DNA of 63,452 bases, counting the filler, from Chrysochromulina tobinii (Eukaryota): assembly GCA_001275005.1 (NCBI GenBank). It is 4 parts of 4 records of this genome, joined end to end, with 100 filler letters (N's around TTAATTAATTAA, not from the genome) between each part and the next. Parts side by side here need not be neighbours in the genome. Positions count along the whole stretch, not along the records: positions 34,855 to 48,473 come from JWZX01001358.1; 3 more parts are not named here. One strand, 5' to 3'. The translations under genes were made by a program, and so were the position numbers. Of this stretch, positions 2,345-48,573 are shown piece after piece; position 1 is the first letter of the stretch; every line of letters starts with the position of its first letter. The notes beneath the pieces are model-generated. The model was given only the letters and a program-made list of their open reading frames with translations, had not been told where the DNA came from and ran no database searches.

Positions 2345-3217
2345 ATGGCCGAATACGACGATCGCCTGCAGCGTCGGGCGGCCGGCGGTGAAATCTTGGT
2401 CGCTCGGCTGCTGCCAAAGCCAGGCCCCAAGCTATACACTGGCATGCTTTGGTGGGTCTTTGGGCTTTATGTCCTGTTTTATGCCCGCGCGCCGTACATG
2501 CCGAGTGCAGCCGAGGAGCAGACTTACGGTGAGCTGATGCAGCAGGCCATCTTCTCCGAGGAAGCGAAGGAAGCCCAGAACGAATTGCTCGCGGCCGAGC
2601 GGCGCCTCGCGGAGGTGCACGTCTTCGGCTGGCGCTGGAGATCGCCGTACTCGCAGCAGGTACCACCACGCATGCGGAGCGTCGATGAGGCCCGTGGCCG
2701 ACTCGAGTTTCATTTGCAACAGCGCAACGCGTTGATCAGCGAGGCCAAGGCGCAGGTGGGCATCTGGTCGGAGTATGGCGTCGAGGAGGTCCGCGACCGG
2801 TTCTGGAAGGCCTACCAGTCGGGCAAGGACTTTGCGAAGCGGATGACATGGTGGGACCTCATCCTCGGAGCGGGCGGTCGGCGCGATGAGGAGGCGTGGG
2901 TCACGATGTTCCGCTATCTCGCGCAGATCATGATGAACTTCACGATCGGCCTCATCTCAGCCCTCTTCTCCTTTTGCTTCTCGCTCGTGTCCATGCTGTG
3001 GGAGTACAAGACGAGCTACTTGTCCGGCCTGCTCTTTTTTCTCGTCGCCATGTCAGGCGCCTCCGCGATGGTCGCCACGTTCATAGGCGGCATGTACACT
3101 GTCGCCATCGGCGGCGTGTACGTCGTGCTGAAGTCGAATGCCAACAATCCGCGCCTCCAGGGACGTCGGCAGTACCAGCCGCAGAATCTGCGTGCGAGGT
3201 ATGAGCACTACGACTGA
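2345..3217 (+). CDS. Hypothetical membrane protein (N-terminal TM, coiled coil, C-terminal TMs)
   Basis: 290 aa ATG-initiated ORF with coding-like codon use and hydrophobic segments GMLWWVFGLYVLFY, FTIGLISALFSFCFSLV, LLFFLVAMSG. Confidence 0.75.
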   Translation: MAEYDDRLQRRAAGGEILVARLLPKPGPKLYTGMLWWVFGLYVLFYARAPYMPSAAEEQTYGELMQQAIFSEEAKEAQNELLAAERRLAEVHVFGWRWRSPYSQQVPPRMRSVDEARGRLEFHLQQRNALISEAKAQVGIWSEYGVEEVRDRFWKAYQSGKDFAKRMTWWDLILGAGGRRDEEAWVTMFRYLAQIMMNFTIGLISALFSFCFSLVSMLWEYKTSYLSGLLFFLVAMSGASAMVATFIGGMYTVAIGGVYVVLKSNANNPRLQGRRQYQPQNLRARYEHYD

Positions 3218-6317: not shown

Positions 6318-9300
6318 TCACGTCTTCTGGCTCTTCCTCAAATCCTTCTCCTGCTCCGAAGGGGCGCTCATCACGACCTGCGGCACAACCTCAATGATCT
6401 TGACGGTGACCTTCTGCATGTTCGGCCCATAGACAGTCTCCTCCTTTTCGGAGCGCGGCTCGAGATACGTGCACGGCGGGTAGACGCATTCGAACTCATC
6501 TGGGTATACTGAGAAGGGTTGCACGACGGCCCCCATGTGAGCAGCGGAGTCGACGCGCACCTTGAGCAGCAGTGGCATCAAGGGGGCCTCCGGATTGAGC
6601 TTCATCCGCGCCGCCACGTCAGCAAGTACGCCCTTCTCTGAGATGGCGCGGTTCATCGACATGGACATCGGGCTCAGCTCAGTGCCACCGCGCTGCTTGA
6701 ACTCGGAGGCAACATCCAGGTTGCACATGCCACGCCAAAGTACCCTCTGGGGAGTGCTCTTAGCGCCGGCGGTCGTCTCATCGTCGGGTGCGCCAGCGAC
6801 TGCCGCGGCCGCCGCGGCTGCGGCCGCCGCCGCCTCGGCTGGCCGCGCATTAGCCTTGGCCATCTCGGCCGCGCGGAGCTTTTTGATGGCCTCGGTGAGC
6901 AGTGCGACGAGGGCGGGGTACGGGTGCGGCCGCTCCGGCGAGCAGCCATCGTGCAGCGGCCGGTTGATCGACCGAAAGACGGAAGATGAGTACAAGCGAA
7001 GTGCGAGCACGTGCGCGCGCTTGAGCCCGGCCGAGGCCGCGGCAGGCAACGCCACGAAGTCGTCGAGGCTGAGGCCCCTGTTCCCCTGGTCGATGTGCGA
7101 CGCGGGCTTGAGCTTCCCAGAGTCCTCAGGCAGCGATGGCAGGCGCGAGAAGTCACCGGAGCGGTGGGAGCGCACGTAGGTGAGCCAGTCCCTCTGCGTC
7201 CAGCCGTACTCGTCCGTATCGGGCTCCGCGGCGCTCGCACACGCCGTCTCGATCTCGTCGATGATGGCGCCTTCGCCGCCCAACATCTTGGCCCTGAGTT
7301 CGTCTTCCGTCTGCAGCCCGAGGAGCTTGTGCAGCGCGGACAAGCCCTCAATCGGGCGGCCAAAGCGAATCTTCTCAGCGAGGTACTTGTTTTCAACACT
7401 CGTATGGTCGTTGATGGACGAGGCGTCGAACATCAGCTCGTTGAGCGACTTAGGTGCCGCCGCCACGGTGGCCTCGCGGTCGACCTGCATGAGGACCATT
7501 TGCTCCTGGCAGAGCGGGCATACCATCGGACGCCCTTGCAGCTCTGTACACGCCCAGCGCGTCGGGAGCCCCTTGTGCTCCGTGTGCTTGGCGCAGCCGG
7601 GGCAGCCGAGCTCGGCCACAGCCGTAAGGCCGGGAAAGTCGTGGATAATGGCGTCCGCGATCGCCTTGATCTGCAGTAGGATGGCCCATAGCTCATGACG
7701 GTTGGACTTCTTCCCGCGCATCTCCATGCACAGCTCATACTCGCCTTTCTTGAGAGCCTTTTCGTGTGTCGAAGTCTTCTCGCCCGACACGGCGCCCGTG
7801 CGCAGCTCGAGGAGCAGCAGCGCGGAATCTTTGGTGCGCGTCTCGATGAGCGCGCCGCTCTTCCAGAATCGATGATACTTGCCGAAGCCGTAGCACGAGG
7901 CCGTGAGCCGCTCCGGAATCCCAGGGGGGGCGATGCTCCCGATGCGATAGGACATGGCGAGCGTCTCGCGCGCGTCGCCGTCGGCGTGGCCCATCGCCTC
8001 ATTCCACTTCCACATAGCATCGGTCGGTTGGTTGGGCGGCAGGCGCATCGGCATCACCCAGCGGCGCCCCTGCTGCGTGTGCTCTGCAAGGAAGAGGACG
8101 CCACTCACGCTCATCATCAGCAACACCTCGGCGTAATCGTCGCGCTCCAGCCCGAGAGAATCCCACATGAGGGGGAGCAACTCCTCACGAAGCTCGCCGC
8201 TCTTGACCAGGCAATCTATGGCCGGCAGCAGCGTCGCCGCGCGCTGCTGGTCGTCGCCGATCAAGAGCGCGCCTGTGTGGCCCTTCGTGAAGAATTGGCG
8301 GTTGAGCCGGTGGTCGACGAGCGGCTTGAGCAACCGCACGACGTAATTGGGCTGCAGGTAGATGATGCCGCAGCTCGCGAAGATCTCGCCCTGGTTGACG
8401 AGCAGCTGCAGCGCGTCATCTAGCACTGCGGCGTCGCCGGCCAGCCCCATCTTGGCCGCCACCTCGTTGACCCACAACTGCTTCGCAGAGCGCACCGTCA
8501 TGTACGCGCGGGATCCAATCTCGCGGTTCTCGGCGTCCCACTCGCCGCCGCCGCCGCCGCCGCCACCGCCGCCGCCGCCGACGCCGCCGCTGCCGCCGCC
8601 GACGCCGCCGTGGGCGCTCTCGCCCGCTGCCGGCGTCGCCTCCGTGCTGTCCTTTTTCGCTTGGCGCTGATCGATTCCAACGACCTTGGCCGCTTCGATG
8701 GGATCGCGCCCGTCGCGCAACGCGCGCAGGTACGTCATGGCGAGCACCCACGTGCGAGGGATAGTCTGGCCGACCGAGGGGAGCAATGGGGGCTTGGCGA
8801 GCAGGAGGGACTCGATTTGGAGGCGCAGAGAGCTCAGCGACTGGTCGCCACCCGCGATGGATGAGACGCACATGACCTTATCCTGCACACGCAGCGAGCG
8901 TTTCTTGACATCAAGGGCGCTCTGGTGGCGCTCGACTCCCTTTTTGATCCAGTCGATCTGCTTGAGCGCCGCGTGTGCAAAGGCCTCGTGCGAACGATCC
9001 TTGGCGTCGTCCGGCACGAGCTGGTCGCAGTGTGTGAGCACGAACTGCACGACCGCGTCGGGTGCGCCGGTCGTCAGGTAGTCCATCCAACGGCCGAGCA
9101 CATTTGAGTACTCCGAATCGAGCCATTCCACGGGATTCGCGGGCACGGTCATCAAGTAGAGCGACCCCGGTACAATGTACGGCTGCAAGCCCGCCGCGTA
9201 CTGCGGCTGCCCCGCGAGGTCCCACATCGAGACGAGCACATGCCCGTTCTCCTTGGTCGAGTCTCCCACGGCCATCGAATAAATGTCGAGCTGGATGGTT

Positions 9301-12300
9301 CGCTCGTCTTTCCCTGCCGGGCGGGGCGCACCCGCACGCAGCCCGCGCTGCAGCGACGTCTTGCCGCTCTCGCCGTGACCGAGCAGGACGAGGCGCGCCG
9401 TGTTGGCCGTGGTCTCGCCGCTCTTGACGAGCTCTTGGAAATAGCGCCGGATGGCGGCGATGCCCTGCTTTGCAAGCGAGAGCGGCGGCCGCTGTAGCGG
9501 ATTGTCCCTCACATCGATGCGCTCGAGGTTCTTGAGGTTGCACACGGAGAGCACGAGGGCGCCTAGCCGGTTCTCGGCGACGTCGAGGTGCTTGAGCGAG
9601 TTGAGCTGCCCGATGGAGACGGGCAGGTAGGTGAGCAGATTGGAGCGCAGGTCGAGGGTCTCGAGGTTCACCAGCAGCCCGAGAGACGCGTGGAGCTCGT
9701 AGATGCGGTTGTTGTGCACCGAGAGCTTCTTGAGAAAGCGTAATTGGCACAGGTCTTCGGGAAGGGTGGCGAGCTTATTGCCCGAGATCGAGAGCGTCTT
9801 GAGTGAGAGCATCTTGCCGACCGAGTTGATCTCCTCGATCTGGTTCTTGTCCATCGAGAGCTTCTCGAGGCCGGCTAGCGCGCCCATGGACTCGCACAAG
9901 AGGTTGAGCTGCTCCTTTTGCTGCGCCAGGTACCGCTTGAGCGAGTCCATGCTCATCGTCTTGAGCTCCTTGTCGCCGAGGACGCGCACGTTGCTCGATA
10001 TGTCCAGGGTCTTGATCGGCGTCGTCTTCAGCTGGTCGACGATCGCCGTCAGACCTTCCGGCCCCATGTCGTTCGTGTTCACGTTGAGATCGGAGAGGGA
10101 TGTGTTGTTTGTGACGAGTGCACCGACGATGACGGAAGAGACAAAGGTGAGGCTCTGTTTCGAAAGGTCAATCGAGCGGCCGGTCTTCGCATTGAGCCCC
10201 TTGAGAAGGTGCACAGGCAGCAGCCCGCCCTCGAGCACGATCATCTGCAGCGATGGGTTCAAGCGCACCGCTTCCGCGAGCGCAAAGACGCCCTTGTAGT
10301 TCTGCTTGACGGAGAGATCCGCGTTCGGGTCGATGGTGCACAGGGGGTTGTTGGACAGGTCGACGGTCGTGATGGTAGTGTTTTTGAGGAAGGCGGTGGC
10401 CAGCGCAGTCGCGGCCAATGTCTCGAGGCCCGTGTTGGACAGATCGACGGCCGTGATCGAGTTGTTGAACTTGAGCACGCCGGCGAGCATGCGGTACGCT
10501 CCCGGCGCGAGCTGCTGACCGCGCAGCTTCAGCTCCGTCGCGTCCGATTCGATCTCGAAGGCGTAGCATTTGAGGGACGAGAGCTGGCATTGGCAGTCGT
10601 CGCTCAGCAGCAGACCACCCATCATCCACAACCCGTCGTCCTCGATCGGGTTGTCGCGCACGTCGAGCGCCGTGAGCGAGTGGTTGAGCTTGATGGCGCG
10701 TGCAATCACGTTGGCCGAGATGGCGTTGTTCGAGATGTCGAGCGACGTGATCGCACACTGCTCAGTGCGCAGCACCTCGACAAAGAGGATCCCGATCGCC
10801 GAGTCAGTCAACTTATTGGACGAGAGCTTCAGCTCCTTGAGGAACAGGCACATGCCCTGCTGCAGCGACTCGAAGAAACGAGTGCCGCCGCGGTCGCCCA
10901 GGCTAATCTTGGACAGGTTGAGCGTGCTGAGCGTCGACGCCTTCGCGCGCTGCAGCTGCTCGAGCACGCCCCCGCCCTCCGACGAGGATCCGGGGTTGAG
11001 CCGAAGCGACTTGACCGTCTGGTTGACGGCGAGCAGCGCGCCCACGACGGCGCATGCCCACCGGTGCAACGCTGCCGGCACTCGGTTGTCCTTCTTGTCG
11101 GTCTCCTCGACGGTGAACCCCACATCCCACAGGTCGATCTGCTCGACGCTCCGATTGCCGTTGAGCTCCTGAACGGGCAGGACGGCCAACGCGACCTCAG
11201 AGCCACGCCCTGGGTGCTCGAGGTGGAGCGACTGGAGCGTCGAGTTGGTTTGGAGCGCTTCGGCGAGCGCCTCCACGTGCTCGGCCACCACGGAGCGGAG
11301 CGTGAGCTTCGTGAGGGACGAGTTTGAGCGGAGAAGTCCGCAGAGCAGTACAAAGGAGCGGAGCGACCGGACGTGCTCGCGATCTCGCAAGTCGTACACG
11401 TGGCTGGTCATGCCCGGGTGAAGCTCATAGATGTCACAGTAGCCCACCTTGCCCTCCTTGTTCGCGAGGAGAGCGCGGCCGAGCTCCTCGCGCTCGGCCT
11501 CGCCGAGGTCGCCGCCGGGCGCCATGGTGATCTCGGTCAGGGTCTTGTTGGCCTTGAGCACGCCGGCGAGCATGACCGCGTCGCACGCCTGCGCGGACTT
11601 CCACGCGAGCGTGCTCGTCTTCTCATAGAGGGCAAAGATGTCGCACTGCAGGAAACAGAGCTGATTGCCGCTCTCGAGCAGCGCGCGCCCTATCATCTCC
11701 TTGGCTCGAGAGTCCAGATGAAACGTGCGCTCCATACGCGACATGGGCTCCGCCTCGACGATGCCAATCGATTCCAAGCGGAGCCCTTTGACGCGTAGGA
11801 GCTCGGAGAGCGCCGGCTCGCGCCCCGGATTGTTGTACGACACGTCGATGCGTCGCATCGCATCACACGTACGGAGCGCCTGGCAGATGATTCGAATCCC
11901 ATCGGGGCCAAGCCCATTGTTGGATACATCCAGCGTCGTGAGCGTCTTGTTCATAGCCAGGCCGCGCCCGAGCGTGCGCAGCAAGTGCTTGAGCCCGCCG
12001 AGCACATTAGATCCCAAATCGAGCGAGGTGAGATTGGGTGCCGTCATCAGCATGCGCGCGATGCCCGCCGCGTCCGTCTCGCGCTTGCCCACGCCGTTGC
12101 CGGCCAGGTTGAGCGTGACGAGCTTCTCATTCTTCTCCATGATGAGCCAGAGCGCCTGCAGCCCCGTCTCTCTCAGCAGCGCATCTTGCTTCGAAAAGTC
12201 CCATGAGGGTCTCCGCTTGGCGAGCAGACTGCCCAGGAAGCCGCCGGCGATGCGGCACGTGTTGTTCATGAACGGGTTGTTCAGGAACTTGGCGGCGGTC

Positions 12301-14045
12301 GCGTCGGTCGCCCAGCCTTCCCAACCATCTTGGGCCTGAATCAGCAGGTGCTGCGCGAAAAGGCCCTCCTGGAAGGAGAGGTGCTTGAACTGGTACTGCG
12401 CGGCGGCCACCTCGGTCTGCACCTCGAGCGTCTTGGTGAGCGGCATCCCGTTGTCCTCCTTGTTCAGGTGGAGCCAGAGGGTGAGACCCTCTGGGTTGGG
12501 TAGGTCAAGCAGCAGCGCCTGCGCCACGTGTGCCGACGAGAACTCGCGCCGCCCATTGATCTGGTTCATCACGGCCACGTTGCGCAGCATTGAGAGGCCG
12601 AACGACTGAGCGCGCTCACCAAGGAGCATCTTGAGGTTCGCATTGACGAGCATCATCACGGTGTCGACGAGCTTCTTGGGCATGAGCAGCTCGATGCGGT
12701 TGAGCTCGGTGCGCTGCACCTCGGGCTTGACCGCCTCGCGCAGATAGTGCGAGCCATGCTTGAAGACCTCGTACACCTCATTGGCCGTCAGCTTGAAGAC
12801 CTGCTTCTCCTTCGACTCGCCTTTCGCTACGCTATTGTTCTCCTCCTTTTTGACCTTCGCGTCCATCCCATCATTGAAGCGCAGCTCCTCAAACTTCGTC
12901 TGTGCCTTGCGCGACGGCTTCTTTTCGCGCTCCTTGACTGGAGCGCTCGTCTCAACACCAACCTTGGTGTCCTTCGCGTCCTTGCCCTTGGCGTCCCCAG
13001 TATCCTTTGCCGCCATCGCGGCGCCACGGTCAAGGTTGAAGAGGCGCATCCACTCGTGCACGAGGTGATCGGTCGAGGTGAGGTCTCCGGACACCTGGCT
13101 GCGCAGCAGCCGCTTTGAGATGGCACTCTCGATGCCGAGCTCGTAGAGCTCGATGCGGTTCGAGGGCAGCTTCGTCAGGTCCTCGCCGCCCGAGGTGAAG
13201 ATGAGCACGAGCAGCGAGAGCAGCACGGGGATGCCGGTCGCGTCCACGAGGAAGACGAGCTTCTCCTCGAGCAGCTTATCGAGCTCAGCCTCGGGATAAT
13301 GGCCGGCGAGCCGCTGCCGGAAGAAGTGGTAGTGGCCGTACGCCTCGTTCTTCGGATCGAGTGCGATCTTCATCACGTCCTCGTAGTGCAACTCGGCCTC
13401 GCCGTACATGAAGAAGTCGCGGAATGAGATTTTGAGCACCGCCACCGCGAGCCGAAAGTGCGTCGGGTCCAGATCCTCGAACTTGTTGCGCAGTTGCACC
13501 ATCGTGATTTCGACGCACTCGCCCTCAACCTCTTCACCCTCTTTGTTCACGTAGAACTTCTTCTTCGCAGGCTTTGCGATAATGTTGCCGTCCGCGTCGA
13601 GCTTCGGAGGACCGCCGTCAAGCAGCCCGTGCTTGATGATCTCTGGCCATTTGGCGCTGTCGTTGTCGTCCACCGGTAGTGGGGCCGAGGTCTGCAAGAG
13701 CTGAACCAGCTGGATGATCTGCGTGCCCGTCTTGCACGGTATGCGCGCACGCACCACGTCTGTCACGCATGCCTCGACAAGCCCGCCGCCCTCCGAAACG
13801 CGTCCACCAAGAGGCTCGTCCATTGCCTTCTCGTGGCAACGCACCGGCTCCTTGAGCTCGCCAAATATGGTATCGTTCACGAGCGCACTCGCTTCTGCTG
13901 GGTCTCGCGCCACCTCCTTGAGCAGGAACTTGAGCACGAAGGCAAAGACGGGCAAGAACTCCTCAGCTAACATGTACAACTCGTCGGTCCGCGCGACGAT
14001 GCGCTGCCAGCATGCGGCCGCTGAGATCCCCTGCTTCGCCTTCTG

Positions 14046-14104
<59 letters not shown>

Positions 14105-17100
14105 TTGCCTCGTCCGAGGTCTTGTCTTGAGCCTTCCAGTGCAGCAAACCGAGGGGACTCGCTTGCACATCCGCCGTGCCCAGCTTTCGGATCAGCCTGG
14201 CCAGGTTGAGCGCCACGCGGTGGCGCAGCTCCATGCCATCGGAGCCGCACATATCCTCCAGGATCTTCGCCTCGAGTTCACTGGCAGGCGCCGAGGCGGG
14301 CGAAATAGAGAGCACTCGGTCGACTCGATCGAGCAGCGAGATGCCGCAGCGCTGCGGTGTGTGGCTCTTCATCTGCCTGTCAAGCTTCTCGAGGTACTTG
14401 GACGTTGGCGTCTCCCCTGTGCCGAGCTCACGCAGCACCGTGCTGTGCGTCGATGGCGAGCGCAGCTGAGCAGCTGGGTCAAAGTAGGTCACAATGTCCT
14501 TGGGGCGTGCGCCCTCCAAAGTAGGGTCGGCCGCGGACGCGCCTTGGCTAGCCCCAGGCTCGGTTGGTGCGGACGCCGGCTTCGACTGCACCGCGCCTGC
14601 CTTACTGTCGAGTATCTCCTTGTCCCGGAGCTCCATCGTACCTTTTCGTTCCCTGGCGGGCTCCCTGGCGCCACTCTCGCCCTTGCGCGGCGAGCGCCGC
14701 GTTGCCTCGGCCGAAGCGGCGATCGCCGCGTCCTTGTTCTCGTCGGCATCCTCGCCAACAGAGTCGACCTTGTGCAGGCTGTCGACGCAGAGTAGGCCCT
14801 CGAGCTCCGTGCGAACAGACTCCTTGATCTTATTGTACGCTTCGTCGAGCCACTTGCGCACCTCCCCGAGCGAGAGCAGGTGGTCGAAGAACTCGGAGCC
14901 TTGCATCTGGATGTTGATCACGCGTCGCTGCTGCTCGTTAGTGAGCTCGTTCAGGTTCATGATGACGAAGCGCGACCGGTACAAGCTGAGTGTGACGCCC
15001 TCGGGACGGCTCGTTACCAACACGCGGTTGCCGCTCGGTACGAGCTCCGAGTGCACGAACTTTTCGACCTGGTCGCGCAAGCCGGCGGCCTCGTCGACGC
15101 CGTCGAGGAGCACCACGAGCGCGCGCATCTGGTACGCCTGCATGAGCATCGCGCACCATGACTCCATCTTCTTGCCGCTGTACACGGACTCGATGTACCG
15201 AGGCAGCAGTTGGAAATCCCCTTCCTTGTCGCGCTGGCCCTCGCGCACTAGGTACACGATGCGCTGCACGAAGACTACGACCGGTACGAGCCGGATGCCA
15301 TCCTTGTGCCCAGTGCCACCGCCAGATCGAAGCCGGTCGGCGAGAGTGTACACCGCCTGCTTCGCCATCCACGTCTTGCCAGTGCCCGGCCCGGCGCGCA
15401 CGAGCACCGGCTGCGCTGAATGCGAACCCATTGATCGGTTTGGCGAGGGGATGAGCAGCAGCGTCACCAAGTCGCGCACGTCGTTGACGCGCCAATTTTC
15501 GGGCACCGCGCCGGCCGCATTGTCCTGCACGTCGGTCGCGGTGGACACGTGCAGCGTCTGGTCCTTGATGCGCAACAGATTACCCGTGATCGCGTCCTCC
15601 ACCATCGCCTCGCGCTCGACAATATCCTCAAGGTAGTTGAGGCGCGCCATCTCGAACGCAGACACGTCTTTGAAGCGCTGCACCGAGTGGTTGAACTCAT
15701 TAAGGGCCGTCGTGATGAGCACCGCCTCTCCCGCTAGAGACGAGACCATCGAACGCACTGTGCCGTCCTCCATCAGCCGATTCTCGAGCACGTTGACTAC
15801 TGTCCGGTTGGAGAGAGTACCCACTTTGTCCGTCGTCTGCGAGAAGCCCGAGCGCACTATGAGCGGCTTTTGTGAGCTCACCACGAGCTGCGTGTTCGCC
15901 GGCATGTTCACCGCGAGGTCACCACGAACCGCCGACGATGAGCCGTCGGAACTGGCTAGCTTGAAGTACTCCAAGACTTTCCCTGGATTGGCCTCGTCCG
16001 GCTTGCACACCGTCACCCAGCCCGTCGTCGTCGAGCCCTGCACCAGCAGCCGGTGGCGCGAACCCTCCTTGATGTCTGTGGGATTCTGCATCCCCTCAAA
16101 CTCCTTTCCCTGGCCGAGGGCCCACTCCTTCACCTCAGCGTCGCAAGCGGCTCCCTCATGCTGATAGAGAAGCCGCGTGCCCGGCGGGTGTCGCGGGTTG
16201 GTCGTGCGCACGACCGTCTGTGGCGTCGGGTCGATGATCGACTCGGAATTGATCCCATCGACCTTGACGACGACAGAGTCGTCCCTCAGCACTCGCTGCA
16301 CCGTCGCGCATCGACCTTCGGTGCCCGCCCGGCTTGCGCATCGACAACCGCGCGCCTTCCGCGCACCCGTACGCGAGCCAGGGGTTCACCTTGAGCAACG
16401 CCAGATGCAACTCGAGCGCGCCCGTTTGCGGATTCTCCACCCTCCAGTCGACGCGCAGCTCGAGCTCGCCGTCGCCCTGCAGCCCGTCGTGCTCGAGCCC
16501 GTGCTCAGCGCCCACCCGCCACTCATTGGCAAACTCGATCCGGTCGAGGAACTCGATGCCCTTCGAGGGTGCGATCTTCAGGCGGCCGATGACCGCAAGC
16601 GATTTGGTCGATCGCAGGTCGAACGCCTCGGCGTCGGGTAGCGTCGAGATGTCGCCCTGGTACAGCTCGTACCCCGAGCGGTAGCAGTTGAACATGAGGA
16701 TCATCGCCGCAGGCTCTGTGACGCATTCGTGCCGGCTCGGCTGACCTTCGGGTCGACCAGCTGGTCGTTTCGTCTCGTCGCGTGCTAGCCTGTTGAGAGA
16801 GCCCTGCCCACCCGCCTGCGCACGCATCCGCTTCATGAGCTCCTCGGCCCTCTTCTTGTCCTCATCAGACTCTTCGGCTGCGCCGGCCGCCTCCTTCTTC
16901 TTCTCCTTCTCCGCCGCCGCCGCCGCCGCCTTCTCCGCATCCTCCCGCTGACGCTTCTCAAACTCGCGGCGCGCCTTGGCCTCAGCGGCCAGCTTGCGCT
17001 CCTTCTCCTCCTCGAGCTTGGCCGCGGCCGCCTTTTCGGCCGCCGCGCGCTGCTCGTACTCCTTCTTGGCCTTCATCTTGGCCTCCGCCTCCTTTCGCTC

Positions 17101-23560: not shown

Positions 23561-23660
23561 NNNNNNNNNNNNNNNNNNNNNNNNNNNNNNNNNNNNNNNN
23601 NNNNTTAATTAATTAANNNNNNNNNNNNNNNNNNNNNNNNNNNNNNNNNNNNNNNNNNNN
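23561..23660. other. Assembly gap with artificial TTAATTAATTAA linker
   Basis: 44 N + TTAATTAATTAA (23605-23616) + 44 N. Confidence 0.98.
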
Positions 23661-34754: not shown

Positions 34755-34854
34755 NNNNNNNNNNNNNNNNNNNNNNNNNNNNNNNNNNNNNNNNNNNNTT
34801 AATTAATTAANNNNNNNNNNNNNNNNNNNNNNNNNNNNNNNNNNNNNNNNNNNN
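34755..34854. other. Assembly gap with artificial TTAATTAATTAA linker
   Basis: N run with linker at 34799-34810. Confidence 0.98.
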
Positions 34855-36452: not shown

Positions 36453-36756
36453 ACGAGATACGTATATACTCGAGTACGAATAACTGTCGCGCGACCATGA
36501 ACAGATGGTGCATGCACTCGTGGTCGGACAATTCCCCTACCGCAACCGTCCAACCCGAAAAACCAGCTTTCGGACGCTGTGCGGCAACGCGCACGCATGT
36601 GCTGCCTCGTGCGCGCTACATCACAGACGCGCGGCGGAGCACGGAAGCGGGCTCGTGATTCTCGTGCGCGAGCCAGACGGCCATGACTCAATGCAAAGTT
36701 GCGATGACGCCATTCCTATCGATTCGCCCGCGACGACGCCTTGTCCGCAAGCAACA

Positions 36757-39700
36757 ATGCTCCTCGGAGCATTGGCGTGCATCGTGCTAGCCCTGCACCA
36801 CGTCTTGCGGCTGCCTTCACAACGTCTTGCGGCTGTGCGCGCTGCGGTTCCGCCCACGCTCGTGCTGCGCCCTGACACGCACAAGAAGCATGCGCTGCGC
36901 AAAAAGGAGGAGGAGAGGGAGGAGGCTGCTCGGGCAGAACGTGCGGCGGAGCAGTCGCGGCTGCTGCTGCAGTCCGAACAACGAGTTGCATTGCGTGAGC
37001 TCATTCGGGCTGGTCAGAAGCGCGAGGCGGCACTCCTTCTCCAGAACATGGCGCGCGCGAAACTCCTTCCCGATCAAGCCTCATACGCTGCCTGCCTCGA
37101 AGCTTTCCTGGCACCACGGATGGAGCACAAGCTGATCGTGCAGCTGGCTGCGCTGATGCGTTCCTTCCCCGTGCCGCTCTGGCCGGGCGCCGCCGAGGCG
37201 TTCGTCACGTCCACGGCCGCGCAGGGCAGCTGGCACGACTGCCTGGACTGGTGGCGGGAGCTCGAGGCGTCGGACGAGGGTGCTCGAGCCCCTGTCGTGT
37301 GCGCAACGGTCCAAGGCGCAGCGGTCGTGTGCGCAACGGTCCAAGGCGCGGCGGTCCAAGGCGCAGCGGTCCAAGGCGCGGCGAGTGCGGCGCGGGAGGC
37401 CGCACTCCTTGCCATGGTCAAGCTTGAGCGCTGGGCCGATGCGGAACGAAACTTGCTCACCTCGGCGCTCGACACAGGAGCGTCCACGGCAGCCGTGACG
37501 GCAGCTGGCTATCGGACTCTGCTCCGCGCGTGCGCCGAGGCGTGCGCTGAGGCGAACGTCAAGGCGAGCGCGAGCGCCGAGATGAGCGCCAACGTCCGAG
37601 CGGCGGCGGCGCTCGCCCGGTGCGTCGTCTTGGGCGCGTGTAGCTCGGGGGTGGCCGATGATGGCATGCTGCGCGAGGCGCTCGCGGCGAGTGCGGCGAG
37701 TGGCGAGTGGGCACAGGGCCTCGACCTCCTGAGGAAGACGTGGCCGGACGGAGCAGCCTCCGGAGAGTGGCCACCACGGGCACAGGCACAGGCACAGGCG
37801 CAGGCACAGGCGCAAGCGCAGGCGCCAACACAGGCGCAAGCGCAGGCGCAAACGCAGGCACAGGCGCAGGCGCAGGCACAGGCGCGGGCGCAGGTGCTGT
37901 GCGTGAGTGCGCGGCTACACGCGGGCGTTGGCGACCTCGACGGCGCGAGACACGCGCTGCGCCGGGCGCGTCACCTCGCGCGGCGGGTCGATGGCGGCGA
38001 GGGCGGTGGCCTGGGCCTGGCCGCGTCGGATCTGGAGGCTTTGATGCTTGCATGCGCGCACCAAGGGCGGTGGCGTGATGTGCGATGGCTCCTGCGTGCC
38101 GCGCCCGCGAGCGAGCAGTACACGATCGCCTCCACAGTCGTCGCTCTGGCCGCATGCTCTACCGGCACGACCGAATGCTCTACCGGCACGCCATTCCGCA
38201 GCGTGCGCCGCCAGAGGCTCGCGCAGCTCGCGGCTGCATGCGCGGAGGCCGTCGAAGGGCGCCGTCCTGGGCGCGATGGGCCTCTGCTGGCCGCGCCCAG
38301 GACGGCGCCCGCTTCGGACGAGATCGCGCCCAGGACGGCGCCCGGTTTCGTCATGCCGCTGGCGGTGCGCCCGTGGGCATCGGCGGCGTTCTGGGTGCGC
38401 CTGCAGGTGGTGCTCGGCGCGGCGCCCAGAGCGCCGCCGCGAGCGCCGCCGCAATCCAACTCGGGCAGAGGGGCGGACCCGGCGGCGGCGACGGAAGCGG
38501 CGGAGGCGGCGGCCGTGGAGGCTGTGCGCATGCTCAGCGTGCATCATCGTGCCGGGCTCGAGGTGAGCGCAACGGCTCTCGAGTGCGTGCTTCGTGCGGC
38601 CGCGCCGTTCAGTGCGCTGCAGGAGCACATCTGTGAGCTGTACGGGCTCCTCGAGCGCCAGCTGGGCGCCCAGGACGGCGCGGCGCGACCCGACGCCGAC
38701 GTGTGCGAGCTCGTGCTCCCCCATTACGAGCGCGCGAAGCGCTGGCGAGAGGCGCTCGCGCTGCCGCACGTGCAGCCGTCAGCTGAGTGCTTCTCGCGGG
38801 CCATCGAACGAGAATGCAATCTCGAGGCATGGCTTCGGATTGCCGAAACTCGCTCCGACGCGCGAGGCGCCCGCGACGGCGCGAACGGCGCCCGCGACGG
38901 CGCGAATGATGCCCGCGACGGCGCGAACGGCGCCCACGAAAACGCGCGGCGTGCCGAGCGGCGCACGGCCGCCATCGCGCGCTGGCGCGAGCACGTGCTC
39001 GTGGGCGCGCCAGGCACAAGCGCGGTCGTGGGCGCGTGCGGTCGTGAGGCGCTCAGGGCAGCGCTGCGATCCGTGCTGCAGCTCGAGGCCTTGTCCCCCT
39101 CGAGCGAGGGGACGCAGCAAGAACGGCTCGAAGACCAGCTGCTCAAGACGCTGCTCAAAGGGACGCCCACGACAGCGCCGATCGGGACACGTGCCACACC
39201 AGCAGCGTCCTCTGACGTGGCCTCCCGCGCGCCCGCGACAGCGCCTGCGACGACTATGCCGACAGCGGAGGCCCGAGCAATGGTGGCGGCGTTGCCGCGC
39301 GGCGTCGCCTCGAAGATTGCGTACCACCAACTCGGGCGGGAGGCACTTGAGCGCGCCGCGGCGCTCGTCCGGCGAGCTCAGGGCGAGATCGAGATCGGGC
39401 GAGCTCAGGGCGAGGCGTCAGGAAGCGGTGGAGGCGGCGGGATCGGCGGCGTTGAAAAGGCTCGCGCGCTCGGTACGGCGCGTCGGCTCGACGGCGGCGC
39501 CTACAGTGCTCTCGTCCGTGGGTGAGCGATGATTGCCTCCCTCATCAGCGCTCTCGTCCTTGGGTATGCAGCGATGCGTGACGAGGCGCATGCCAGTGCT
39601 CACCACGGCGCTCGGTCTCCCCACAGGTACGCAGCGATGCGTGACGAGGCGGTGGCCGCTCGGTTGGCCCTGGAGGCGTGCCGGCTGGGGATCCCCCTCG

Positions 39701-41149
39701 ACGCGCAAGCCTACCTTGCCGCGCTCGCGTGCGTGCGCACGCCCGCCGACTTGAGCACGCTTGTCGCGGGCATGTCGGCCACTCCGCGGCTGCGCTGGCT
39801 ACGCTCGTACGCCGATGCGCCCGTCTCCTCCGTGCTCGCCCTCGCGGGCACTCTGGGTGGCACGGGGCGCTCGTTGCCTGCGCTCCAGAACGCGACGCCC
39901 GCAGAGGTACAGGCAGCCCTCCAAGCGTTCGCCCCCAGCATGCAAGTGCTCACCACGGCGCGCGCTCTCCCCACAGGTACAGGCAGCCCTCCAAGCGCTC
40001 GCCATGATCGAAGCGAGCGTTGGCGGCGTGAGCGCCTTGCTGCAGGACCTGCGAGCAAGCGGCGTACAGGTAGGCCCCGCGTCTCGATGCATGCTCCTCT
40101 CGACGGCGATGCTCGAGGGCTGGGTGCAGCAGCAGCTCGCGCTCCACGTGTGGCTCCCGCTACTCGCGCCGCGGGGCGACGCGCTGCTTGAACTACTCGG
40201 CCCGTCGCTACGACTGGTCGAGACGCCAACCGGATCGGGCTTCAAGGGCGCTTGGTGCTTCGATTGGCGCGCGCCCGAGACGACGCACCCAGTCCTCATT
40301 GCGTGGATGAAGCTTCGTGGGCAGACTGATCCGAGATTCGCGCCCACGGCGGCGGATGCGGGCCTGTGCCCGGTCGACGTGGGCGTCCATGTCCTTGAAG
40401 GCATCCTCCTCTCGCTGCAGCACGTCTCGCCGCCCCGCGCCCTATCGGCCGCCGCCCGCACGGCCTCAGCCGCCTCCCGCACGGCCACGCAACCCCCATC
40501 GGGCTCCATCTCCGGCTCGATCTCCGGCGCGGAGCTGCCGCGCTCGCCCACGACGGCGCTCACGTGGCGCCGAGACCTCTCCGAGCTGCAGCTGGCGCTT
40601 CAGGCGATCGTGGTGCGTTACGAGGCGGCCGCGAACCCCACAGGTGGGCGCGGGCTCGGCTTCGCGGCTCCGTGGGGTGCGGCCTCCGCCCCGGTGCCCA
40701 CCCCGGCGCTCGCGTCGCTCCGTGGCGCCCTGCGCGATGTGCTGGTGGCGCTCGACTTGCACAAGGGCATCCGATTTGGCGCCCAGTGCCAGACCGCGAT
40801 GGTGTACATCAACGCCCTCGAGGGCATCTTTGCCCTTCTCGGCACGGAGCCGAGCATGGCGCAGGCGGCGGCGGCGGCGGCGGCGGCGGCTGGGTCGGAG
40901 CCCGCCGGCGCTGTGGGGTTTGGCCGTCGAGGCGCCGTAACGGGCGCGCGGCGTGCGGCGCCGAGCAAACAAGGCAAGAATCGGGCGGCGGGCACCGCGA
41001 TGACCAAACGGGAGCGTAAGGCGGTCGACGATCTGACGCGCGAAGGGTGGGTCCATCGCGGAGCAGTCGACCCGTCTCCGCAGCGCACGACCGTTGCCGT
41101 GGCAGCGAGTCTGTCGCTGCTGCTGCTCGATGTTGAGATGGCTAGATAG
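36757..41149 (+). CDS. Large degenerate PPR-like helical-repeat protein; introns 39522-39626 and 39907-39976; start uncertain
   Basis: AALLLQNMARAKLLPDQASYAACL; YRTLLRACA; spliced YSALVRG|YAAMRDEAVAARLALEACRLGIPLD; the two introns join three ORFs in frame; (AQ)n tract ~37780-37893. Confidence 0.65.
39522..39626 (+). mobile_element. Introner-like intron 1 carrying an internal copy of its spliced junction
   Basis: GTGAGC donor, CCCCACAG acceptor; 39546-39588 matches the spliced exon junction at 40/43; 3' arm shared with intron 2. Confidence 0.6.
39907..39976 (+). mobile_element. Introner-like intron 2 with a 29-bp duplication of the downstream exon
   Basis: 39905-39933 matches 39975-40003 at 28/29; arm GCATGCAAGTGCTCACCACGGCGCGCGCTCTCCCCACAG. 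Confidence 0.6.
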
Positions 41150-48473: not shown

Positions 48474-48573
48474 NNNNNNNNNNNNNNNNNNNNNNNNNNN
48501 NNNNNNNNNNNNNNNNNTTAATTAATTAANNNNNNNNNNNNNNNNNNNNNNNNNNNNNNNNNNNNNNNNNNNN
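48474..48573. other. Assembly gap with artificial TTAATTAATTAA linker
   Basis: N run with linker at 48518-48529, followed by a poly-C contig end. Confidence 0.98.

Follow-up and report, generated by a model that had tools for sequence, protein, structure and literature searches.

An intron carrying a copy of its own spliced junction, and a cassette family flanked by long target duplications, in Chrysochromulina tobinii

Introduction

Several routes by which genomes gain introns have been described, and we give them here as they are characterised in the excerpts at hand of the cited papers. Known introners are bounded by target-site duplications (TSDs) of 3-9 bp (PMC9860276; bioRxiv 2020.10.14.339549). 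Among haptophytes, family 5 of a Chrysochromulina sp. TARA MAG is described with a 4-bp TSD, no terminal inverted repeats (TIRs) and a 5' splice site of its own (Gozashti et al., PMC9860276), and fam24 of Emiliania huxleyi with five copies, '10bp terminal direct repeats' and a co-opted 5' site (PMC12130899); the excerpted results of the latter 2025 screen assign no introner family to Chrysochromulina tobinii. In another direction, the neointrons of Daphnia pulex have been attributed to staggered double-strand breaks, including a 'staggered-then-staggered' mode (PMC4202315), and tandem genomic duplication of AGGT has been found to yield introns (PMC3443670). Fungal introns are described, in the excerpt concerned, as spreading without duplications (PMC8469720). 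Further, breaks with 3' overhangs can be filled in to leave small tandem duplications (Pol alpha/CST, TMEJ; PMC8355091). The C. tobin genome itself is reported to have a GC content of 63.4% and roughly one intron for each gene (PMC4580454).

Here, we analyse a C. tobinii gene in which a 105-nt intron contains a copy of the very exon junction that its removal creates. This intron was likely left by two stacked insertions, each duplicating about 10-50 bases of the gene, and it shares its 3' part with a family of introns that pair a common cassette with a long copy of the adjacent exon.

Results

The window and the host gene

The window, by which we mean the whole stretch of DNA analysed (63,452 nucleotides, filler included), is gene-dense eukaryotic DNA with 57-72% GC per 2 kb, and its sequence is also present in mixed-culture and freshwater metagenome runs. 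It has N runs at 23561-23660, 34755-34854 and 48474-48573, each with a central TTAATTAATTAA linker; since four contigs were thus joined artificially, adjacency across these joins carries no meaning. Pfam detects no enzyme or autonomous element among 14 frames of the window. On its minus strand, 6318-16385 is an uninterrupted frame of 3,355 codons with Pfam matches to LRR, Roc and, weakly, NACHT. The gene of interest and its first intron have the following parts:

36484..39521, plus strand: exon 1 of the host gene, long and coding (ORF 36484-39525; stop-to-stop frame, putative start)
39504..39521, plus strand: end of the upstream exon (U), template of the inner copy (sequence comparison)
39522..39626, plus strand: intron 1, 105 nt, GT..AG (skipped by an X13 RNA contig, contained in an X1 DNA contig)
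39522..39548, plus strand: 5' arm, comprising the 5' splice site and a type-A cassette (TGATTGCC unit, closing in CCTCATCAG), from a putative second insertion
39546..39563, plus strand: copy of the upstream exon end, 16/18 (sequence comparison)
39564..39588, plus strand: copy of the downstream exon start, 24/25, the putative target duplication and original 5' splice site of a first insertion
39588..39611, plus strand: type-B core, 24 nt, with a branch-point-like TGCTCAC (one change from the common form)
39612..39626, plus strand: pyrimidine tract and 3' splice site ending CCCCACAG (same ending in 60 of the 86 duplication-bearing copies listed)
39627..39906, plus strand: exon 2 (spliced frame and RNA contigs), of which 39627-39651 is the stretch copied inside intron 1
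39977..41149, plus strand: exon 3, ending at the stop codon (spliced frame, ORF search)

Once 39522-39626 and 39907-39976 are taken out, a single frame stays open from a point before 38200 until the stop at 41149. The sequence-only reading had recognised a PPR-like motif restored by the splice; Pfam reports no family for the host protein, whether in its three exon pieces, scanned separately, or in P0001 of a relative, whereas Atlas places the protein with PPR clusters at 0.91-0.92 with a low recognition score, so that the motif survives as a weak lead and the protein, on its sequence, may be called uncharacterised and weakly PPR-like. Short in-frame tandem duplications of 21-33 nt are common in the exons (e.g., 38866-38936 and 39371-39414), and those of the host gene differ in copy number across the proteins of relatives.

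Intron 1 is spliced and contains a copy of its own junction

The initial claim that intron 1 carries a copy of its own junction is borne out: the joined exon ends are identical to 39546-39588 at 40 of 43 positions, and the second-best match to the junction within the 63-kb window, at 30/43, overlaps the true junction itself. In a polyA RNA run (X13) from a related strain that is about 1% different from the window, an 885-nt contig omits the 105 nt of intron 1 along with the 70 nt of intron 2, both bounded by GT..AG. The 105-nt skip is seen in one of six RNA runs; among the matches listed, no piece of X11, X12, X14, X15 or X16 bridges the site, a lack that says nothing for or against splicing. 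All 14 protein records of exon 1 from relatives stop at the first codon of intron 1, which makes it very likely that the X13 skip reflects splicing and not an allele devoid of the intron. The inner GT at 39564 was considered as the donor and rejected, since an in-frame stop then remains.

As the window consists of four pieces joined by N linkers, an assembly artefact, or else a chance repeat in GC-rich DNA, might be invoked for the internal copy. However, one contig of the DNA run X1, which may be the source sample, covers 37856-39961 with no differences and no gaps, and this excludes the mis-assembly that had been named as a possible refutation. The RNA skip, the three positions at which the two copies differ and the identical stop codon in all 14 relatives' records likewise speak against it, and we assign this explanation a negligible probability.

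The copy had also been described as lying between two arms, with the 3' arm shared with the next intron. This holds for the 3' arm, which matches intron 2 at 40/43 and whose core recurs at no fewer than the 136 loci described below. The 5' arm, in contrast, is not a shared 5' end: its first 14 nt occur in none of the 136 loci listed, its start only loosely resembles exon 2, a point that tells against two stacked insertions, and its last ~18 bases constitute a second 3'-end cassette that also closes many other introns.

Intron 2 and the distribution of the introns among relatives

Intron 2 represents the simple form of the same architecture, and a third site lies upstream in exon 1:

39907..39976, plus strand: intron 2, 70 nt, simple form (skipped in X11 and X13 RNA contigs)
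39907-39933, plus strand: copy of the start of exon 3, 27 nt, one mismatch (sequence comparison)
39938-39961, plus strand: core of intron 2, preceded by a 4-nt linker and followed by the tail (sequence comparison)
38562..38563, plus strand: empty AG/GT site, at which an extra TGATTGCC-type intron seems present in two relatives' contigs (from predicted proteins)

A comparison with orthologues lacking intron 1 had been proposed; none of the 14 relatives' records represents an empty allele of intron 1. Intron 2 is read through in P0002, P0011 and P0017, i.e., in 3 of the 15 members listed of a 45-member cluster, on contigs of 8,597, 9,544 and 1,936 nt, respectively. These three begin in exon 2 and never reach exon 1, which fits DNA that retains intron 1; eight listed members of the cluster begin at the first Met of exon 3. 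At site 38563, P0001 and P0003 switch to EVSDDCLPDD and then stop, P0019 and P0029 begin with ..DGLPHQVSATALE (..DGLPHQ) and then rejoin the exon, and the site is empty, being read through, in P0021, P0027, P0031 and the window. The 5' arm of intron 1 translates to VSDDCLPHQ, like the apparent start and end of the 38563 intron. Either may have served as template for the other, making them a possible donor-recipient pair within one gene. Since intron 2 seems absent in three relatives and site 38563 seems filled in two, gain looks recent, and wild relatives appear polymorphic for these sites, judging from predicted proteins in which gain and loss are not polarised.

A cassette family with long copies of the downstream exon

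We scanned metagenome contigs with a 21-base core pattern and recovered at least 136 loci of about 600 nt each, a sample biased toward exact 21-nt cores. With 10 loci that repeat another place removed, the matches listed contain 146 non-redundant core copies in diverse genes, whose likeness is limited to a 3' part of ~45 nt; a pyrimidine/YAG tail is present in 113 of these 146, and in 110 the flank is long enough for testing. In 85 of the 110 testable copies listed, a copy of the first bases of the downstream exon precedes the core, whereas shuffled pairs reach an equal score in 2.5%, which upholds the long target duplications postulated from the single locus. The same duplication is present in 15 of 20 non-anchor copies, which were not used in the search. 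Among the matches listed, the 85 duplications have a median length of 26 nt (IQR 18-32), 78 of them begin with GT or GC to give introns of 57-95 nt, 30 of 83 align with gaps, and AG precedes GT at 32 of 86 sites; prior to de-duplication, a copy of 8-52 nt with 94% identity was present in 86 of 112. Removing the predicted intron leaves an open frame at 59 of 79 loci, as against 15 without removal, among the matches listed. In eight hand-picked loci scanned with Pfam, the two halves fall on adjoining profile positions in one (L052), one half runs to the cut in six, and one is uninformative.

The core begins with the palindrome GCATGC and its edges are sharp: 42 of 54 non-exact copies found via the 3' half also have the 5' half, conservation declines just upstream of the core, and many X1 contigs diverge from the window precisely at the core boundaries 39938 and 39961. 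Most copies have a site-specific 5' portion of 25-50 nt, and the tail is highly variable; thus, this is a family without end-to-end similarity. Inspection of the copies revealed no TIRs, the 5' end being an exon copy or a variable linker and the 3' end CCCCACAG. An origin of the core from an snRNA or tRNA was considered and finds no support in Rfam, where the matches of six loci were two weak, unrelated ones that fell short of the gathering score.

The type-A cassette consists of TGATTGCC-type repeats ending in CCTCATCAG and terminates other introns. Of 19 such ends examined, four show clear downstream-exon copies of 12-29 nt, without a control, and many of the remainder are cut by the locus edge or show copies of only 5-7 nt. 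The TGATTGCC-type repeats lie on the strand of the core in 240 cases and on the opposite strand in 6, and the full-length members L004, L008, L122 and L126 combine the repeats with the core and a 5' start that they have in common. The last two also exhibit a mirror form, in which the upstream exon is copied at the 3' end and this copy supplies the acceptor, and elsewhere a tail-less core lies between long duplications (e.g., L009, L010, L013, L044, L084 and L087). From the mirror and tail-less forms, any part of an intron-like master seems insertable with a long duplication, the target giving the missing splice site.

Head-to-tail arrays of duplication plus core, with two or three units at one site, are seen in L081, L044, L084, L087, L024, L012 and L083, and such arrays could reflect repeated re-duplication or rolling copying. 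In L112 and L102, intronic tandem repeats of 10-15 nt recur up to ~18 times with a strand bias, each unit combining letters of the local exon with a TGATTG-like motif.

Exact cores occur once per 36 kb in 68 culture-type contigs, or once per 121 kb in the 17 longest, from which a rough estimate would put the copy number at several hundred to a few thousand in a genome of ~60 Mb. Against this density, copies cluster locally, with 11 exact and 34 degenerate cores in 59 kb of flank, and the window has two, 350 nt apart. Prokaryote genomes gave no core matches, and viral contigs none with one core pattern and a single match with another (L137). The latter core, at 3001-3021, is terminal in a 4.5-kb contig classed as viral, whose DNA has 68% GC and resembles that of the host.

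The nested layout and the order of events

Seven of 85 loci listed (L021, L034, L039, L048, L073, L083 and L102) share the order of parts in intron 1, in which the exon end and GT precede the type-A arm, the copies of the exon end and then of the downstream exon follow it, and core and tail come last, against 15 of 4,201 (0.36%) in the control; L014, L057, L090 and L112 resemble it and fail the strict test. All seven have TGAT/TAAT (type-A) arms on the 5' side and the core on the 3' side.

The near-identity of the 43-nt stretch to the spliced junction could be taken to mean that a pre-existing intron captured cDNA of its own spliced mRNA. However, the downstream half of the copy is already explained by the 85 simple introns among the matches listed, which have no upstream half. 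Moreover, in three loci (L041, L113 and L126) the bases after the internal exon-end copy are those that open the intron, not those of the downstream exon, i.e., the internal copy tracks the intron start where the two differ, and in L048 both internal starts share one base that is missing from the exon. These four loci indicate that the second duplication copied a genomic exon-intron boundary, and where a downstream-exon copy already opens the intron, boundary copying of this kind yields a junction copy. The three former loci largely refute capture of mRNA, which we consider very improbable; most likely, as the sequences of these loci would have it, the junction copy is a by-product of boundary duplication.

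The sequence-only reading had left the choice between two successive insertions and templated repair. The recurrence of the nested layout bears out this general picture, and the finer choice, between two steps and one event with several template switches, is not fully settled. A single event of repair or fork restart, switching repeatedly between an intron donor and the intact local gene, would account for the fixed order of type-A arm and core in all seven nested cases, which is that of the full-length members, for the frequency of jumbled copies, as in the gapped duplications counted above, and for the repeat units made of local exon letters in L112 and L102. On the other hand, the boundary duplications of L041, L113 and L126 reproduce the intron start in introns that lack an exon-copy start, the unit is present twice in L083, and the simple form by itself is about ten times commoner. 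While we give the single-event explanation some weight, we deem it unlikely; the nested evidence favours two steps, with the order of events read from three or four informative loci (L034 and L068 being ambiguous). The consistent presence of the type-A arm in all seven nested cases nonetheless suggests one coupled event rather than two independent ones.

Donors of the filler and drift of the copies

Traces of a shared template are visible between sites. L070 and L046 switch at the same 5-nt microhomology into one linker and have a common tail start, and linker remnants are common to unrelated sites in the pairs L076/L107, L025/L106 and L077/L081. At 474-621, L069 holds a diverged copy, ~40 nt long, of the place where an exon of an L122-like gene meets its 5' splice site (L122 190-260); the presence of donor exon sequence suggests, in this one case, that the template was DNA or unspliced RNA. 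The tails of neighbouring introns resemble each other no more than those of random pairs do (p=0.19), which argues against a simple rule of neighbours as donors, and linker ends are common to neighbours in 15 of 49 pairs, which are not independent, vs 3.8%. Microhomology at direct junctions was found in eight cases, about three of them tandem repeats. Exon ends and intron ends share no more additional homology than shuffled pairs do, the control being weak given that nearly all introns end alike. In 15 copies, the core diverges from its common form by 7.8%, a figure biased upward, and the duplication from the exon by 6.3%; with core drift close to duplication drift, one or a few masters fit better than long chains of donors.

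These features also bear on whether a non-autonomous retro-element or intron RNA was inserted by target-primed reverse transcription, or by partial reverse splicing and end joining. The main form has a 3' end exactly at AG, 5' linkers that vary and a sharp GCATGC edge; these features, along with the star-like divergence of the core, are as such a process would have it, and in the excerpted account of linear group II intron retrohoming the 3' joins are exact and the 5' joins sloppy (PMC3280974). However, the same account has the overhang lost rather than duplicated (PMC3280974). Further, the mirror and tail-less forms are truncated on the 3' side, the copies end in CCCCACAG without a poly(A) or simple-repeat tail and show no head derived from tRNA, 7SL or 5S in the six loci compared with Rfam, the donor exon in L069 (one case) would be lacking from excised introns, and no meaningful Rfam match emerged from the six loci. 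We therefore regard insertion by reverse transcription as quite unlikely.

Discussion

A proposed origin of intron 1

The preferred reading is of stacked cassette insertions with target duplications, arising through fill-in of staggered breaks, microhomology-guided copying of introns and selection for splicing, and we hold it to be probable by a modest measure. In the first step, a cassette of ~40 nt, comprising the core with its branch point, the pyrimidine tract and CAG, would have entered at a GT, the order of the steps being read from the layout. This would have duplicated 25 nt of the downstream exon, with the duplicate providing the 5' splice site of a 63-nt intron like intron 2. In the second, a type-A cassette would have inserted across that 5' splice site, duplicating the exon end and the first bases of the intron. 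Thereafter, the outer GT would act as the donor, and the inner copy of the exon end would adjoin the old downstream copy and so mimic a spliced junction. The engine would be staggered DNA breaks that are filled in while another intron, or its unspliced transcript, is copied via microhomology. Only cleanly spliced products would survive in exons, and the survivors would then serve as new donors. The filler is likely to have been copied, during break repair, from introns elsewhere in this genome, and the short tandem duplications in the exons of the host gene possibly reflect the same duplication process minus the cassette.

More broadly, these may be self-propagating introns that need no transposon of their own, in which host break repair copies pieces bearing splice signals and repeated rounds yield nested forms, an extension to which we lend somewhat less than even credence. 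On such a reading, each new intron again precedes an exon starting with GT and is itself a ready donor. The route that makes these introns is likely still active and, if the self-propagating reading is true, it amounts to ongoing, genome-wide birth of introns.

To our knowledge, the source of most new introns is not traceable. Here, both halves of the intron can be traced, one to the local exon and the other to a shared cassette, and the drift between duplicate and exon provides each intron with a built-in clock. The break-repair model of intron gain thereby becomes countable genome-wide and testable in an alga that is probably culturable. All-versus-all or end-to-end introner screens can miss such introns, and the 2025 survey, in its excerpted text, has none for C. 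tobinii.

Comparison with described systems

The literature searched, with subscription papers and some introner-survey supplements outside its scope, contains no description of this cassette family. In its working, the family resembles an introner, and not one of the MITE type, and it constitutes a variant of duplication-assisted intron gain.

As in known introners, a repeated intron sequence is found at unrelated sites, the element contributes the branch point and AG while the duplicated target contributes GT, and the mRNA is unchanged. Named introner classes, as excerpted, have 4-nt TSDs and often TIRs with end-to-end similarity; in contrast, the duplications here are variable at 8-52 nt and make up at least a third of the intron, no TIRs were seen, and a copy of the local exon can replace either end of the element. 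The haptophyte introners belong to the same phylum and have no TIR, and fam24 has identical splice-site logic. However, as described, they have few copies and short, fixed repeats.

Going by its excerpt, the Daphnia study offers parallels in the copying of an adjacent exon end to the opposite end of the new intron, in presence/absence polymorphism, which here is apparent from predicted proteins, and in repeated secondary events that lengthen young introns (PMC4202315). A direct exon repeat of this type is what the 85 of 110 listed copies display, against 2.5% of shuffled pairs. Nevertheless, the Daphnia repeats are of 4-12 bp and no common filler is named in that excerpt (PMC4202315), whereas those of C. 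tobinii are longer and accompany one cassette family. Introns from AGGT duplication likewise take their splice sites from the duplicated exon (PMC3443670); the excerpt has the whole intron consist of duplicated exon, whereas here a foreign cassette gives the branch point and acceptor.

Finally, the fill-in of breaks resembles this system, in the account excerpted, in that staggered breaks acquire duplications some tens of bases long, with microhomology where polymerase theta does the end joining. That account concerns mammalian cells, without intron formation or a common inserted cassette in the text at hand (PMC8355091), whereas in the C. tobinii introns the long duplications come together with a shared cassette bearing splice signals.
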